DNA of 64,000 nucleotides from a virus: IMG/VR virus record IMGVR_UViG_3300035681_000001, positions 32,001 through 96,000 of that record; one strand, written 5' to 3'. The translations under genes were made by a program, and so were the position numbers. The stretch's first letter is position 1, and each line of letters starts with the position of its first letter. This document shows positions 1,028 through 34,300 of the stretch, one piece after another. The notes under the pieces are model-generated. The model was given only the letters and a program-made list of their open reading frames with translations, had not been told where the DNA came from and did not search any database.

Positions 1028-2380
1028 GTGGACTTTCTGTATTGTAACGACCTCGGTACTTATCGTACTGGGGTTTTATCTTTGGGGTGTGAGCCTTTAG
1101 CGTTAGACACAGAAACTATGGTCCGACCTGAATATGAAGGTCGAGGCGGCAGTGCTCTGGACCCTCATACCGGTAGGATATCTCTAGTTATAGTCCAGCA
1201 CTTAAATCAAATACCGATCATCTTTGATCTGGTTTGTTTAGAAGCTCTAGGTTATGACCCAGAACCGCTAGTTAAAGCTTTAGACACAGCCGAGTACTTA
1301 CTAGGAGCCAACATCAAGTTTGATGCCAAACAACTCCGAGGAACTTTAGGTTACACACCTAAGAAACTTAGAGATGTGATGCTGCTAGGTAAACTAATCA
1401 GCAACGCTACTGGATCTAAAGCTGGTAAAGCAGTAGGGCACTCGCTAGGAGACCTAACGCGTGAATACCTAAACGTCCACTTGGCAGGTAAAGGCACTTT
1501 ACAAAAGTCTACCTGGGCTACCGGAGTAGAATCTCGTACGTTAACTAACGAGTGGTGGTTAGAAAAACTAACTTACGCAGCCAACGACGTAGCTTACCTA
1601 TTTCCCTTACAAGCTGTAATGCTACCGATACTACAAACACCACTACCCGATTCTCCACTTACTCAAACAGGTAACACTGGAGCATGGGGGTTTGGTATGA
1701 CCATAGCAGTACAACGAGAGTTTAGGTTGTTACCAGTAACAGCCGAGATGGAATACAACGGGCTGCCTGTTTCTAAAGACTTTATGACTGCTTTTCAAGA
1801 AGCAGTCAAAGACTCTCTGGATTCTTTAGGGGTATATCTGTCCATAGAACTAAAACTAGACACTCCTCAAAAAGACTGGTCCGGGCGGTTAGTGCCTTCT
1901 TTAAAAGCCTTAAAAGTACTGCGCTCAGCTAGTGGGTTACTAGACCTCATACGTAAAGCTCTAGACTTCCAGAAAATAGACAACGTTCAAGCAGCCGTGC
2001 TGCAACGTATGCTGTCCATCCTAGACGCACTGGCTGCCGCTAGCACTGCAGACGATAGCACACCCACTACAGGTGAGCTGTTTATTAACGAAGACGAAGA
2101 AACCTTATACTCAGAATTAACCGAACTAGAACACTGTAAGTTAATAGCAGCCTCTCCTATAGTCCAGGCTATTTTGGACTTTAAACGGCTGACTAAACAA
2201 GATGGAATGGATTTGCGTAAATACATAAACCCAGCTACTGGTAGGATCCATCCTAGTTACAGTCAAATAGGTGCTGCTACCGGACGGTTTGCTAGTTCCG
2301 GGCCTAATGCCCAACAAATCTCCAACAAAACCAAGGTATTACTAGATGGGTTCCAAACCCTTGGATTGGCCTCTACGTAA
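1028..2380 (+). CDS. polA: family A DNA polymerase, N-terminal part (3'-5' exonuclease + thumb)
   Basis: Exo motifs ALDTET, GANIKFD and YAANDV; EMEYNGLPV; GRIHPSYSQIGAATGRFASSGPNAQQI (PolA TGRLSS..PNLQNI). Stops before motif A. Confidence 0.9.
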   Translation: MDFLYCNDLGTYRTGVLSLGCEPLALDTETMVRPEYEGRGGSALDPHTGRISLVIVQHLNQIPIIFDLVCLEALGYDPEPLVKALDTAEYLLGANIKFDAKQLRGTLGYTPKKLRDVMLLGKLISNATGSKAGKAVGHSLGDLTREYLNVHLAGKGTLQKSTWATGVESRTLTNEWWLEKLTYAANDVAYLFPLQAVMLPILQTPLPDSPLTQTGNTGAWGFGMTIAVQREFRLLPVTAEMEYNGLPVSKDFMTAFQEAVKDSLDSLGVYLSIELKLDTPQKDWSGRLVPSLKALKVLRSASGLLDLIRKALDFQKIDNVQAAVLQRMLSILDALAAASTADDSTPTTGELFINEDEETLYSELTELEHCKLIAASPIVQAILDFKRLTKQDGMDLRKYINPATGRIHPSYSQIGAATGRFASSGPNAQQISNKTKVLLDGFQTLGLAST

Positions 2381-2702
2381 AAGGTCAATAGGCTTTGAAA
2401 ACAACCTCATATTAAAAGAGCTGCTACTGCTAGGGGCCTTTAAAGAAAAAAACGCTATAGCTTGGCCCTCAGACACTGGCTTGACAGAATCAGAAACTAA
2501 AACACTACTAGAGTCCTTACGTAAGAAGAACCTTATTCGCGGCCGAGCACCTTATAAGCTAACCACTAAAGGAAAGAAAATAGTAGCCGATCACTACCAC
2601 CGTTTGTTAGCTGAGTATGAATCTAGTAGAACCCAACTACCAGTTTCTGGCAACACCCAGACAATCATTCGTAACGAAGGGGAAAGTTTGGATTTCAGTT
2701 GA
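2346..2702 (+). CDS. small winged-helix-like protein nested between the two polymerase ORFs
   Basis: TGLTESETKTLLESLRKKNLI...YKLTTKGKKIV resembles the MarR/PadR-type wHTH recognition helix plus the Y.LT.KG wing. Confidence 0.55.
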   Translation: MGSKPLDWPLRKRSIGFENNLILKELLLLGAFKEKNAIAWPSDTGLTESETKTLLESLRKKNLIRGRAPYKLTTKGKKIVADHYHRLLAEYESSRTQLPVSGNTQTIIRNEGESLDFS

Positions 2703-3300
2703 CTTTTCAGGTCAAGAGCTAATGGTAGCTACAGCCTGGTCAAAAGATCCGGCTATGGAGCGAGCTTTTACAGAACCTGAAGTCTTAACCTTACCTGATG
2801 GTACTACTTACAAAAACCCATACGCTGACCTGCACACACTAACGGCAGTTAAGTGCTGTGCCCCAGCATTATTCCAGGGAGTCCCAGAACACGAGTGGGT
2901 AAGTAACGCTAAAGAAAACGGATCTAGACACAACGGTAAAACTACAAACTTTGGGATTATCTTTGATCAAACAGCAGAATCTCTATCACTACTCAACCAC
3001 GTTAAACTGACTGAAACTGAGCAATGGGTAAAAGGCCACAAGCAAACCTACGCAGGTTATCACCACTGGGCTGAAGAATACGGAGCTATAGCTGCCGCTC
3101 GCGGCTTTGCTGTTAGCCCGGTGTCTAAAGCTATTCGCTGGGTAGATGAAGAAAACTCCAAAGGTGGTGGGGAATCGCCAGCTAGAGCTGCGGTTAATTA
3201 TGCCATCCAAGGGGAATCTAGTATGATAACCAAGGAATGTTTGATCAGGTTATATGAAACTTTGCCACCAGAAATAAGAATACTAAATACAGTCCACGAT
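2617..3300 (+). CDS. polA: family A DNA polymerase, C-terminal part, exon 1
   Basis: Motif A VDFSGQEL, motif B RHNGKTTNFG, VNYAIQG, and motif C first half LNTVHD ending at 3300. Confidence 0.9.
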
Positions 3301-3413
3301 AGATTTTGTCGTGGTTAAATAACTTTAATTGCTGGAAACTCCTTAGAGCTTAACTCACCACAACGTAGTCGGCAACGACAAGCGTGACGGTTCAAAAAGA
3401 GTTATGATTGGGT

Positions 3414-4004
3414 CTAGTACTTTGTCTGACTAGCAGTGTAAGACTGAAAGCTCCACTTGTATTGGTAACAGCTAATGGGACAGGGACCAATCCACTCAAG
3501 AAAAGCAGGAATGCTCTTTTTAGAGAGGAATATTTTACCTTTACCGTCAGTTCGTGAGCGAAAACCCAACGACTTGAGTTGAATCACAAGTCGTTGTCGT
3601 TCAGCCAATGTAAAAGAATGGGCTGCAAATGCAATTTGTCTTAGGTATCCGTTGCAGGAGTCAAAGCCTCCATCACCGATGTACCACATAGATGCAGCTA
3701 AAGGGGTTAGTTGTAAATCCCGAGGAAGAATCTTTTTCTTCTCCGGATACCAGCGATGCCAAAAAGGTATGAGAAAATCCGATCTCAATGAGTCTACTTG
3801 GTAGGTTACACCTGTTGAGTAACCATTAGGTTTAGACTGGAGGTTAGGAGAAAAAGGAACGGATTTGCCTAGCTGGGCTCTAACCCAAATAGAAAAGTCC
3901 TTTTCTTTACAGTTATAACCAAATCTCGGGCGCCCTAAAGGTGTTTTCGAGTAGTTGGTTAAATAACCATCTCCTAACAGCAGACCATCCAGTAAGCTTC
4001 TCAT
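3414..4004 (-). CDS. LAGLIDADG (double-motif, LAGLIDADG_2-type) homing endonuclease, antisense within the intron
   Basis: Motifs LDGLLLGDGYL and LAASMWYIGDGG; 196 aa. Confidence 0.88.
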   Translation of the reverse strand: MRSLLDGLLLGDGYLTNYSKTPLGRPRFGYNCKEKDFSIWVRAQLGKSVPFSPNLQSKPNGYSTGVTYQVDSLRSDFLIPFWHRWYPEKKKILPRDLQLTPLAASMWYIGDGGFDSCNGYLRQIAFAAHSFTLAERQRLVIQLKSLGFRSRTDGKGKIFLSKKSIPAFLEWIGPCPISCYQYKWSFQSYTASQTKY

Positions 4005-4040
4005 TAAGCTAGCAACATTTGCTTAAGTTTAGCACTATCG

Positions 4041-4070
4041 GTTATACAGAAGAAAAATCCTGATGGACAA
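4041..4070 (-). promoter_or_regulatory. candidate sigma70-like promoter for the antisense endonuclease
   Basis: Minus strand TTGTCC-N18-TATAAC, about 37 nt upstream of the ATG at 4004. Confidence 0.4.
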
Positions 4071-4248
4071 TCAGCAGCCAAGGGTCTAGGCTGTAACCAG
4101 CTTAGATCAAGGTTCATCGGCTATCGCGGAAGCGAGTAGGACTCAAGAGAGTTCGAAACGGGTTACTAGTGAAAACTAGAAGATATAGTCAGAACTTTTG
4201 CGAAAGCAAAAGAAGCCTTACGGAATCGGTAAGGCTGCAACACTAACG

Positions 4249-4476
4249 GAGATCAATTTTGAGGCGCCAGGCCGATGTTGGCTAGACTTAGATCGCTCTA
4301 AATTTGATAATAACTTACTAATAAACCCTGTGTTTGCTTACGATGAACAAGCTCTAGCTACAGCAGAACGCATTACGCAATTAATGGTAAACACTGAAAC
4401 CGAGTTCTTTCAGGCTGCCGGCTCACCTATTCAAGGTCGAGCCGAATACGCTATAGCCCCTTATTGGAAACACTAG
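4249..4476 (+). CDS. polA: family A DNA polymerase, C-terminal part, exon 2
   Basis: EINFEAP completes motif C (VHD-E); ends at TAG 4476. Confidence 0.88.
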   Translation, partial: EINFEAPGRCWLDLDRSKFDNNLLINPVFAYDEQALATAERITQLMVNTETEFFQAAGSPIQGRAEYAIAPYWKH

Positions 4477-4494
4477 TACTCACGCACCTAAGCA

Positions 4495-4830
4495 ATGGTA
4501 GAAATCCAATTCAAAGCTCTAACCACCGTAACAGTGGCCATTACGGAACCTGTTTACTCTAAAATAAGCAGTGTACGCTCTAAATATAACAAACTAGAAT
4601 CGTTCCGTAGGTGGGATGGTGAGCAGTTTTTAATAATAGAAAAGAAAACCACTTCTAAAGGAGTGGTGTCTGTAACCCTTACAAAAGAGATTTATAAAGC
4701 CTCACTAATAAAAAGCGAAGAAGCCTCAGAGCAAATTCTAGGTAAAGGTAAGTACGCACTCACTAAAGAAGAATTCTATACAGAACTAAAGGCAGCCATC
4801 GGACCTTTCTTAGCTACTATGGAAGGCTAA
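4495..4830 (+). CDS. hypothetical protein
   Basis: 111-aa ORF in tandem array. Confidence 0.75.
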   Translation: MVEIQFKALTTVTVAITEPVYSKISSVRSKYNKLESFRRWDGEQFLIIEKKTTSKGVVSVTLTKEIYKASLIKSEEASEQILGKGKYALTKEEFYTELKAAIGPFLATMEG

Positions 4831-5030
4831 TGCCGCTACACCTGGTAACCTATGAACTTACCGATACTACAATAAGTTATTATCCGAAGACTAAATTAGT
4901 GTTAGTTGATTGTGCTGACGAAGAAGAAGCGCTGGCCTTACTAGAAACCAAACACCCTATTACTTATTGTGGCGTTGAAATTCTAGAGTTCGAGCCAGTA
5001 TTAAGTAACCAAAACACAAAGAAAACCTAA
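4830..5030 (+). CDS. hypothetical protein
   Basis: 66-aa ORF with TAATG coupling. Confidence 0.65.
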   Translation: MPLHLVTYELTDTTISYYPKTKLVLVDCADEEEALALLETKHPITYCGVEILEFEPVLSNQNTKKT

Positions 5031-20777: not shown

Positions 20778-20846
20778 GGGTCGTTAGCTCAGTAGATTAG
20801 AGCTGCCCTAAAACATTAGCCATTGGTTCGAATCCAATACGACCCG
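20778..20846 (+). ncRNA. tRNA-like RNA lacking a canonical anticodon arm
   Basis: Acceptor stem GGGTCGT/ACGACCC, D stem GCTC/GAGC and T arm ATTGG-TTCGAAT-CCAAT are perfect. Only 18 nt lie between the D and T arms, with no 5-bp/7-nt anticodon hairpin. Confidence 0.7.
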
Positions 20847-31327: not shown

Positions 31328-34300
31328 CTACCCTAGTTGATTGCCCATACGCGGGCCAGTAGGCGTCCAATGCCCTGAGCCCCGATGACCTAAAGGCATA
31401 GGTTCGTGTGCAGCTGCTGCAGATTGTCGGTGGCTACCAGCAGGGTCATGCCCTATGCTTTCCACTAGAGTAGTGTATTTCTGAACCAAGCTGATACGTG
31501 CCACTTCTCCCTTTACTTCAGTTTCTTTAGTAGCTACTAGCTGCTTATCATCCCGAACTACCTTAAGCATGGGCTCTGCGTGTTGACTTGCTTTAGGATT
31601 TTGGTTTTCTACCACCACTTGGTGGTTTACTGGTGCTTTAGGTGTAGTTACTAAAGCTGCTGCACCTGCAGCCACTAAAGCTAATACCGCTGCCTGGCGT
31701 TCAGGAGCTACAGCTGAAGCTATCTCAACCTGAGTTTGTCTGATACTAGACTCGTAACTAACTTCAGGTAAGACAACACGTTGTACTGGATGTCTGGTCT
31801 TAACAGGATTTATGGGTATAACTACAGCAGGTTTAGGTACTAAACCACCACCTTTAGCACCTACACCTCGAAGTGCATTTTGAGGCGTAGGTAATACTGG
31901 AGCTTTAGGTAAGGTAGTGTTAATTACATCTCTAGCATGTACTACAGAAACACCGGATTGAGTTTCAAAATAACCAGACAAGCCTGTCCCACCCTGCTTA
32001 ACTGTAACTTTACCTGCAGAAGGAGCAATAAATTTCTTTAGGGTGTCGAAGTTAATATCAATAGCATATTTAGGATCATGGTGACCCATAACACCTCTAG
32101 CTATAGCAGACTTTATCTCAGCATCAGAAGACTTACGAGTCAACCAAATAGATCCACCGCGAGAACCTTGCAAACCGTGTATTTCAATACGCTGCTCTCC
32201 CTGCCTAAAGCCTTCTTTAATAAAAGAAAAAGCATAAGTTTGCAGCAAACTAGCTTCTTGAGCTGTTTGTTGGCCTCGCAAAACATGTGAGCCACCGCGT
32301 TGATTAAGACCTAGGTGAGCATGTATAAAAGAACCGCCCCTAGAGTCCCTATCATTAGTTACGTAAACGGGCCGATCTCCACCAGTACCTGACCTAAATA
32401 GACCCCCTATAATATCAACTGGTGTAGTAGGACGTATAGCATCTGGACTTGCCAAGTACCTACGTCGTGTCTCCCACATCAATTCAGGACTCATAGTAAT
32501 AGTTGCTCGGTTACGACCGACATGGTTATATTGACCACGACCAGAAGCATTTTTAACAGAAGCCCACTCACCGGCTAAAGCATCAATAGCAGCTCTTACA
32601 TTATTGGACTTACCCCTTAAAAAAGCTGCCAGTGCAGGCTGCTTACTACCTATCATTAAAGCAATAGCAGCTCTATCTTGGTTATAGGGACTAAAAACAT
32701 CAGTAGTCTTAAGACCCGCATCACGCATAGCTATTTTGAGGGTACTAGGTATAAACTGAGGAGCACCAACAGCATGGAGTCCGGCAGCTTGCCGCCTCAT
32801 TACTTCTCCAAAAGTCATAGAGCTAAGGCCAGGTAAGCCTCCAGGAGTATCACCAGCATTACCTCGGTTTACTGAGTTATAGCCACCTTCGCCAGCATAA
32901 ATAACTCGTAATAAAGGAGTAAAAGCACTTACTGAAGCTACATAAGCACTACCAGTAAGCTCACCTAAAGCACTACCTAAACCATCAGTAGCACCTTGAG
33001 CAAAAGATCCCACACGCCTAAAAGTTTCAGTAGCTAAACCAGTTAAGTCTTTAACACGGTCAGCAGCCCACTGAAAAAGATCCCAAGACTTTTGCTCGTT
33101 AGTCTGCCTAAAAGTTTGCTCACTAACCCACCGTTGTTGTTTACGTGTTTTTTGATAAGCGGTTTTTTGAGCAGCTATTTTACGCTTTTGAGCAGCTATG
33201 TAGTCATACATAACTTGTTCAGTAGGCTGCAGCGTTAAGTTAGAAAACTTACCTGGAGTAGCTGCCGCTGCTGAACCACCACCAAAGACAGAAGAAAACC
33301 CCCAAAGAGCTAAACCAGCAATCGCTGTACCTAGCCAAGCTGCAGCATCACCAGCTCGGGTGATCATGTTACCCGCAAATCGACTTACCAACTCAAAGTC
33401 ACGCTTACCAGCTTGAGCTTCAGGCGTATTAGCTAAAGACTCACCTTTAAGTAGTTTGTCACGGAAAGATTCATCAGCTTGAACAGCTGCTCTGACTTTA
33501 TTTCCGTAAGGTGTATCAGAAGCTATCAAACCAGCTTGTAGTACTTCTAAGCCAATAATGGCTAGATTCCCGCGTCCTACTGCACCTTCCCCTACTAACC
33601 TACGTAAACCCCTAAAACCCCCACGAGTGCTAGTAGTTGGACTGCTACTAGGACTAGCACCAGCACCACCTCCGGCATTACCACCACCCGTACCACCCCG
33701 AGGGCCGCCACCACCCTTAAAGAAATTCAACAACGCAATACCACCAGCAGCAGCACCAATCGTATTAGACACAGTACCAATATTATCGTCATCCATAGAT
33801 TCATAACCAGGTAGCTTATAAGTGCGCCAGGTTCTCATAGCTATGGAGCTAAGTTGTTTAGCTATAAGTGCCGGAGCAGCCACACGAGCTACAGAACTAA
33901 ACAACCCACCTACGCGAGCAGCAGAAAATAAAGACTGTAAACCAGTAAACAGAATAGTAGAAGTTACAGCTGCACCTAAAGCAGACACACCTGCATCCAC
34001 TAGACTTTTACCAGAATTAACCGCTTCGTCTATTACGTTGAGTACAGTTAAACCAGTACCTAATTTGCCACCTATCAACGTCTTGGCCCAACCTAAGGGG
34101 CTGGCTAGTAAGTTAACCCCTTTTTGCCATAAATTAGGAGAACCAAAACCTTTAGTAGGTCTAGCATACTGAGCTCTGAAATAATCAAAGAAGCGACCTT
34201 TAAAAGTAGACCTGGTACTATCCTGTATTATGGAGTCCCTAAAACCAGCGTCTTGGTAATTAGCCAAACTAACAGCTGCCGCCTCCCAAGGTCTTGATCT

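Follow-up and report, generated by a model that had tools for sequence, protein, structure and literature searches.

The 64,000-nucleotide stretch of viral DNA analysed here (positions 32,001 to 96,000 of IMG/VR record IMGVR_UViG_3300035681_000001; hereafter, the window) comes from an uncultured phage, the source record being a 189.8-kb virus that is about 96% complete. On the plus strand, at positions 1028-4476, open reading frames (ORFs) and Pfam matches reveal a family A DNA polymerase gene (polA) in pieces. Within this gene, positions 3301-4248 are confirmed by sequence comparison to be a group I intron of the IA2 type that splits polA at motif C, and the intron in turn encloses an intact LAGLIDADG homing endonuclease gene on the strand opposite to the host gene.

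The polymerase gene and its intron

The split falls between the D and the E of polymerase motif C (HD|E), as the initial annotation had proposed from the core pairings, and both homologous introns and an uninterrupted homologue bear out this placement. Excision of the intron joins the flanking frames as ...ILNTVHD|EINFEAPG..., with an intronless junction of GTCCACGAT|GAGATCAAT, so that the host frame and the conserved motif are both restored. The uninterrupted homologue, gp178 of the Microcystis phage Ma-LMM01 (IINATHDEINLLVPG...HRYWSH), contains the sequence THDEINLLVPG without a break at the junction and continues to HRYWSH; therefore, the homologue agrees with the HD|EIN junction proposed here and with the C-terminus. 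Ma-LMM01 is also the phage whose polymerase is closest to that of the window, at 30% identity. A tblastn search of phages with the 75-amino acid (aa) last polA exon as the query yielded no match. Without splicing, the upstream ORF ends six codons inside the intron (Table 1); an early in-frame stop is usual in introns of bacterial and phage protein genes (PMC3984707).

The P1 and P10 pairings, the P, Q, R and S elements and the terminal omega-G listed in the initial annotation are all present. The 5' splice site is the U3300.G3308 pair of the 7-bp P1, which is conserved in L007, a related viral contig whose polymerase, 88% identical, is split by the same intron at an identical codon boundary. 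P10 consists of 6 bp, including two G.U pairs, between GAUUUU in the P1 loop (3302-3307) and GAGAUC at the start of exon 2 (4249-4254); in L007, exon 2 starts with GAA instead of GAG (GAAAUC), which improves the pairing. The P element is AAUUGCUGGAAAC (3327-3339), Q is AAUCAGCAGCC (4069-4079), R is GUUCAUCGGCUA (4112-4123) and S is AGAUAUAGUC (4181-4190), and the omega-G, likewise conserved in L007, is G4248, the terminal nucleotide of the intron. The defining feature of subgroup IA2 is the presence, between P7 and P3', of two hairpins, P7.1 and P7.2, joined by G-U-A (PMC3428280), and in the window intron these hairpins are linked by GUA at 4136-4138. The core helices P3-P8 were placed by hand from the sequence and the Rfam alignment. 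The minimum free energy (MFE) fold of the whole intron recovers P5a, P5b and P6a, and 13 related introns show compensatory changes in P5a, P5b and P7; the single U3324/C difference between the window and L007 leaves P3 paired (U.G versus C-G). An alternative P3, AACUUU/AGAGUU, was ruled out by comparison with the KIL1, L063 and L007 introns: the GGACUC-AAGA-GAGUUC sequence forms the P7.2 hairpin, and the 3' strand of P3 is 4160-4165.

The Rfam scan named in the initial annotation recognizes only part of the element. At the gathering threshold, no intron is called in the window; in E-value mode, RF00028 matches the 3' half, with 28.1 bits and an E-value of 1.3e-4. The 5' core (3317-3412) produced blastn matches in 30 phage records (best E-value 5e-14), of which two were scanned, with the introns of Staphylococcus phage DW2 and Pseudomonas phage KIL1 scoring 80.1 and 54.0 bits, respectively, against RF00028; along its full length, the intron of L015, which carries an antisense endonuclease gene at the same position, reaches 52.6 bits. 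The cores of the window and L007 introns are identical at 106 of 109 nucleotides on the 5' side and 143 of 149 on the 3' side. An independent ENA assembly (L008) contains the same arrangement, with 99.8% nucleotide identity over 1891 nt, and the locus is therefore not an assembly artefact.

The polymerase gene is interrupted at one more place. At window positions 2321-2702, between PNAQQIS and PRQSF, there is a frame change with an overlapping ORF of 118 aa (2346-2702; winged-helix-like), and Rfam detects no group I signal at this break. L007 has the same layout at PNAQQIS/PRQSF, with a conserved 120-aa ORF, and the polA of Ma-LMM01 is likewise annotated as three genes (gp180/gp179/gp178), so that a polymerase encoded in pieces looks lineage-wide among these three, judging from the sequences. 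L007 additionally contains an extra group I intron (4271-5010; Rfam, 34.5 bits) after ...KITNFG in motif B, with a zinc-ribbon/HNH-like ORF; the window polA is unbroken at that site (GKTTNFGIIFDQ).

The antisense endonuclease gene and the loop that holds it

The product of the minus-strand ORF at 3414-4004, which lies wholly within the intron, matches the Pfam family LAGLIDADG_2 (PF03161) with 63.1 bits against a cut-off of 25 (E-value 4.1e-17). It contains the two characteristic motifs, LLLGD12G and WYIGD111GG, in which D12 and D111 are invariant among nine family members, and retains 56 invariant columns of the family. The family has few members. The best homologue from a cultured phage is orf197b of Bacillus phage phiNIT1 (46% identity over the full length), and the best match of the family profile to a solved structure, in a search of the PDB, is I-SceI (E-value 5e-11). 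The antisense LAGLIDADG gene between P and Q that was predicted in the initial annotation is thus upheld by the Pfam match and by the same arrangement in L008.

The more general assignment of the gene to the P5 region can be made specific. The gene does lie between P and Q but, rather than being loosely within P5, it fills the loop at the end of an additional hairpin, which branches at the P5/P5a junction and which we named P5c. This hairpin is closed by pairing of 3407-3412 with 4059-4064, its terminal loop is about 650 nt long, and the gene with its 62-nt leader takes up nearly the whole of it. Relatives lacking the ORF (L007, DW2 and KIL1) have GAUUGG(G/A)CAAUCAGCAG as an unbroken sequence. 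In all relatives that carry the ORF, AUUGGGnnn, the first copy, is paired with nnnCCUGAU located just before the second copy, the GGR that follows the 3' arm provides the 3' strand of P5, and the block CCUGAUGGRCAAUCAGCAGCC (at 4057..4079 in the window) is retained. It follows from this pairing that the gene is in a terminal loop, as intron ORFs normally are. The distal part of the stem covaries (GGGCAGUU/AACUGUCC in L015, GGAUAC/GUAUCC in L018, GGGUUU/AAACCC in L019 and GGGUGU/ACACCC in L062), and the arms pair better within their own intron than across introns (-9.5 versus -5.8 kcal/mol; permutation p 0.00025). We also considered the UGAUUGG...UGAUGG repeat as a target-site duplication inside the 3' core strand of P5, which would threaten splicing; this possibility was rejected because the first copy pairs with CCUGAU and closes the hairpin.

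The leader of the window gene is homologous to the leaders of L015, L062, L009 and L018, and the alignment extends across both orientations of the gene (TATATTGGnTAAAGCGAAAC...AGGAG..ATG). Sigma-70-like boxes were called in the antisense cassettes of L015 (TTGCCC-17-TATATT) and L062 (TTGACT-17-TAGTAT), both of which also have Shine-Dalgarno sites in their leaders, and in the sense cassette of the fliC intron L009 (TTGACA-16-TATATT, matching 11 of the 12 consensus positions). The -35-like TTGTCC of the window coincides with P5'/J5-4, of which it is the reverse complement. Just upstream of the antisense leader, the P9.1 hairpin (4214-4236), read on the minus strand and followed by TCTTTTGCTT, scores as intrinsic-terminator-like; such a site could shield the cassette from minus-strand read-through.

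Table 1. Features of the polA intron locus in window coordinates
Feature	Coordinates	Strand	Basis or detail
polA exon, palm, motifs A, B and first half of C	2617..3300	+	ends ...ILNTVHD; Pfam DNA_pol_A 1.4e-23; aligns with Ma-LMM01 gp178
Group I intron, IA2-type, 948 nt (multiple of 3)	3301..4248	+	sequence, Rfam, relatives; core 97% identical to same-site intron of L007
P1: exon CCACGAU 3294-3300 x guide GUCGUGG 3308-3314, 7 bp	3294..3314	+	sequence; identical in L007
In-frame TAA stop, six codons inside intron	3316..3318	+	terminates ORF 2617..3318
5' strands of P3 (3320-3325), P4 (3330-3335) and P5 (3340-3342)	3320..3342	+	partners 4160-4165, 4071-4076 and 4065-4067
P5a 3349-3356 x 3399-3406; P5b 3363-3371 x 3376-3385, GCAA tetraloop	3349..3406	+	MFE fold; covariation
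5' arm of P5c	3407..3413	+	pairs with 4057/4059-4064; arm covariation
LAGLIDADG homing endonuclease gene, I-SceI-like, two-motif, intact, 196 aa	3414..4004	-	Pfam, homologues, PDB profile
Leader of antisense gene	4005..4070	-	-10-like TATAAC 4046-4041; -35-like TTGTCC 4070-4065
3' arm of P5c (4057/4059-4064), P5' 4065-4067, J5/4, P4' 4071-4076, start of P6	4057..4079	+	
P6 4078-4079 x 4111-4112; compact P6a hairpin 4083-4093 x 4098-4108; without ORF, unlike L007	4078..4112	+	MFE fold; L007 comparison
P7 4119-4123 x 4186-4190; P7.1 4124-4135 (GGAA loop); P7.2 4139-4154		+	Rfam alignment, sequence
P3' 4160-4165; P8 4166-4179 (GAAA loop); J8/7; region to 4192		+	Rfam alignment, sequence
P9 4195-4212 (GAAA loop); P9.1 4214-4236; omega-G 4248	4195..4248	+	Rfam alignment, sequence
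polA last exon, EINFEAPGR...APYWKH*	4249..4476	+	Ma-LMM01 gp178 comparison

Orientation and turnover of the endonuclease cassette

The survey of gene orientation is complete for the close family (at least 40% identity); the distant LAGLIDADG_2 loci (L022-L061 and L064-L072) were assessed by simple core-motif patterns only. Genes in the sense orientation occupy the same loop in the phiNIT1 polymerase intron (SSRDP|NLQQIP), the flagellin introns L009, L010 and L018, the nrdB intron L013 and others. The antisense orientation, again in the same loop, is found in four lineages, namely, the window (with L008), L014, L015 and L062, with the host genes showing weak matches to the Gp23 capsid protein in L014 and to an HK97-type capsid protein in L062. 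The three closest relatives of the window endonuclease (50-55% aa identity) are all antisense, and in the phylogenetic tree the four antisense proteins form one clade (support 100/99) that is nested among the sense proteins. The antisense proteins end with ...KY; the sense proteins extend a few codons further, into the 3' arm. Given that the leader, with its promoter-like box, is homologous in both orientations, it appears that the whole cassette was flipped once. The simplest reading of these sequences is that a self-contained cassette was inverted a single time, plausibly across the stem arms, with the flipped form continuing to spread. A sense member (P0007) on a 1.2-Mb metagenome contig (L012 4292-5221) has a second LAGLIDADG_2 gene, encoding 309 aa and opposite in strand, about 600 nt downstream of it.

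The history of the introns differs from that of the cassettes. In the tree of the 5' core, the window intron pairs with that of L007 (99/97), a copy lacking the P5c cassette, and a topology in which the four antisense introns were forced into one clade was rejected (p-AU 0.0065). The cassette thus differs between the sister introns of the window and L007, which implies that endonuclease genes come and go within one intron backbone. The motif C intron of L007 (5464-6127) contains, in P6, a sense LAGLIDADG-like ORF (LIGDGT and YLDDGS motifs) in two frames; the two pieces have no Pfam match and are unrelated to the window endonuclease, and this ORF is probably a decaying endonuclease gene.

The two antisense genes in capsid-like introns (L014 68-664 and L062 1510-2112) have no TTA, CTA or TCA codons along about 200 codons, and the mirror frame in the sense of the intron is therefore fully open; in L062, this open frame continues into a downstream HNH ORF. 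A stop-free mirror frame was rejected for the window, where there are 11-12 stops per frame (4-9 in L015), the antisense gene containing 12 TTA, CTA or TCA codons in the window and four in L015. The HNH-type ORF of L062, which is located on the sense strand after P9 (730-1300, minus strand of the locus), means that this intron holds two endonuclease genes in opposite orientations.

Proposed mechanism, alternatives and known systems

Taken as a whole, the explanation that we favor, and to which we assign a probability of roughly 0.78, is that the window contains a mobile IA2 intron in the essential polA gene, with an endonuclease cassette that would be expressed from its own transcript and was inverted once. 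Under this scenario, the ribosome would halt at the in-frame TAA (3316-3318), after which the pre-mRNA would self-splice, the P5c loop being kept outside the catalytic core. The endonuclease would be produced from a separate minus-strand transcript starting at the promoter-like box in the leader and would cut endonuclease-free polA alleles of co-infecting relatives, with repair copying the cassette, with or without the intron, into the cut alleles. The cassette would be a self-contained expression unit that was inverted once, most simply by recombination between the P5c stem arms, which form an inverted repeat in the DNA, and introns in three or more further contexts, two of them capsid-like genes, would then have acquired the flipped form.

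Several observations weigh against this explanation. Of the nine P5c stems compared, that of the window is the least stable (6 bp, -3.6 kcal/mol), and this long-range stem is missing when the full 948-nt intron is folded for minimum free energy, as expected at such length. The intron scores below the RF00028 gathering score (28 versus 50 bits), because the insert of about 650 nt breaks the model. The initial annotation held that the antisense gene needs its own transcript, and the promoter-like boxes in the leaders of L015, L062 and L009 make a separate minus-strand endonuclease transcript likely; in the window itself, however, the final T is missing from TTGTCC-18-TATAAC, which was not called, and the sigma-70 scan found no minus-strand promoter, the consensus used being possibly the wrong yardstick for this phage. 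There is no clear Shine-Dalgarno site before the endonuclease ATG, a lack shared with neighbouring genes in the window. Finally, the inversion via the stem arms is an argument from parsimony and not an observed event.

The most serious competitor, which we consider possible but doubtful, is that the cassette homes into the intron rather than into the gene. The target would be the ORF-less P5 DNA, GATTGG(G/A)CAATC (GATTGGACAATC), a near-palindrome, with the conserved core providing the homology for repair; the cassette would then copy only itself between related IA2 introns, which would account for one loop being filled in introns of unrelated genes and for both orientations being possible. Compatible with this are the single insertion point shared by introns in polA (two sites), fliC, nrdB and capsid-like genes, the near identity (97%) of the cassette-bearing intron backbone of the window and the cassette-free backbone of L007, the identity of about 80% in the 5' core across many phage introns, which is enough for recombination, and the presence of the contiguous site in ORF-less relatives. 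However, the shared position fits equally well with common descent of an intron-plus-gene unit that moves between genes, and the absence of the cassette from L007 might instead reflect a deletion between the GAUUGG/GAUGG repeats. Moreover, I-SceI, the closest solved relative, is a monomeric two-motif enzyme, so that a symmetric site is not required, and the natural I-SceI site is asymmetric. An autonomous cassette, made up of the promoter-like leader and the gene, that works either way round, targets the DNA of one IA2 hairpin rather than any host gene, hops among polA, capsid, flagellin and nrdB introns and can be flipped across the enclosing stem is put forward only tentatively; if it exists, the intron would be the habitat of the cassette and not its partner.

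It is unlikely that the antisense gene is a stranded passenger, that is, an immobile, inactive or unexpressed relic that the intron tolerates. The weak promoter-like box and closing stem of the window and the lack of a Shine-Dalgarno site would be compatible with such a relic, and the P6 ORF of L007, in two pieces and without a Pfam match, illustrates the decay of an endonuclease in the same intron. However, the 196-codon frame is intact, with both acidic residues and the 56 invariant columns kept; four members have all stayed intact despite diverging to 50-55% identity; and the cassette is present in one and absent from the other of two 97%-identical introns, which indicates recent movement.

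Least probable is a regulatory function of the minus-strand transcript, an idea raised in the initial annotation, whereby pairing with about 650 nt of the intron in the polA pre-mRNA would prevent the RNA from folding or expose it to double-strand RNA cleavage and thereby couple the supply of polymerase to endonuclease expression. Any minus-strand transcript of 3414-4004 could pair perfectly with the intron loop and, in the case of read-through, with P1-P5 as well; in the cyanophage S-PM2, an antisense RNA reportedly links the intron-containing psbA gene to an endonuclease gene. The complementary region, however, is a peripheral loop and not the catalytic core, and the capsid intron of mycobacteriophage LittleE, which carries a bottom-strand LAGLIDADG gene, is reported to splice efficiently (PMC3706429). 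A regulatory role for the antisense RNA is pure conjecture.

The LittleE intron (GenBank JF937101) is also the precedent that weakens the rarity suggested in the initial annotation for an antisense gene in a phage intron: the major capsid gene is interrupted by an intron with the LAGLIDADG gene gp14 on the bottom strand, and splicing has been demonstrated by reverse transcription PCR and N-terminal sequencing (Pope et al. 2013, PMC3706429). The GenBank record agrees with this antisense layout, which is the same as in the window. The two cases differ as follows: gp14 matches Pfam LAGLIDADG_3 and has been called I-CreI-like (PMC3706429), in contrast to LAGLIDADG_2 in the window, and shows no detectable similarity to the window protein (BLASTP E-value 0.62); it is located 3' of a compact ribozyme core (Rfam, L074 2859-3062; gene 3065-3598) and not in P5c; and the host gene is a capsid gene instead of polA. 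By sequence, then, LittleE and the window share a layout but belong to separate lineages. Our finding adds to a known but rarely described layout, and its added value lies in documenting a single cassette in both the sense and the antisense orientation within the same RNA loop. Phage group I introns with a backward endonuclease gene thereby gain a second lineage, unrelated to the first, in this case at the polymerase active site of a replication gene. Unlike in the single published case, relatives hold the same gene in the same RNA loop both ways, a natural matched pair for the questions of whether orientation has any influence on splicing or on endonuclease dosage or timing, and of whether the DNA target is in the exon or in the intron. 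With regard to annotation, minus-strand ORFs inside split phage genes should not count against an intron.

Intron insertion in motif C of polA has also been described before. Position 881 falls within H881-D882-E883 of E. coli Pol I, the motif C that is split in the window; the two sites share this motif and may or may not share the exact bond. Among the IA2 introns described in polA, those of SPO1, SP82, Bastille and Pf-WMP3 are at site 674, that of phiL7 is at 676, and those of PhiI and W31 are at 881, in E. coli numbering (PMC3428280). Like the window intron, they have P7.1 and P7.2 and interrupt family A polymerase genes at conserved catalytic motifs, but the introns compared in that study carry sense-strand HNH endonuclease genes in place of an antisense LAGLIDADG gene (PMC3428280). 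The phiNIT1 intron resembles that of the window in being IA2-type and in interrupting a family A polymerase gene, and its endonuclease gene likewise occupies the P5c loop, flanked by GAUUGGG and CUGAUGGAUAAUCCGCAGCC; it differs in that orf197b is in the sense orientation, with its stop codon within the 3' arm of the closing stem, in the presence of an additional HNH gene, and in the insertion site, SSRDP|NLQQIP and not motif C, which, by motif comparison, we would equate with the SPO1-type site 674.

Outside phages, the antisense example cited by reviews is I-DirII, a His-Cys box gene with its own promoter in a nuclear rDNA intron of Didymium iridis (PMC3073962). It resembles the window gene in being antisense to the host intron, but it is a eukaryotic gene that has a Pol II promoter and a spliceosomal intron and whose transcript receives a poly(A) tail; it also belongs to a different endonuclease family and resides in an rRNA host. 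Antisense or opposite-strand endonuclease genes are not mentioned in a 2014 review of bacterial group I introns (PMC3984707). I-SceI itself, from the omega intron of yeast mitochondrial 21S rRNA (PDB 1R7M), shares the two-motif LAGLIDADG_2 architecture with the window endonuclease but its gene is sense-oriented, the intron belongs to a mitochondrial rRNA, and the two proteins are distant relatives in sequence.

Elsewhere in the window, Rfam identifies 20778-20846 as a tRNA (44 bits) whose anticodon region is shortened; ARAGORN does not report this tRNA. Outside the window, the same phage contains a second group I intron (G000:C1:25496-25769, L005 1501-1774; RF00028, 83 bits), and a 301-aa sense ORF with LAGLIDADG-like motifs lies just upstream of its core and overlaps it.

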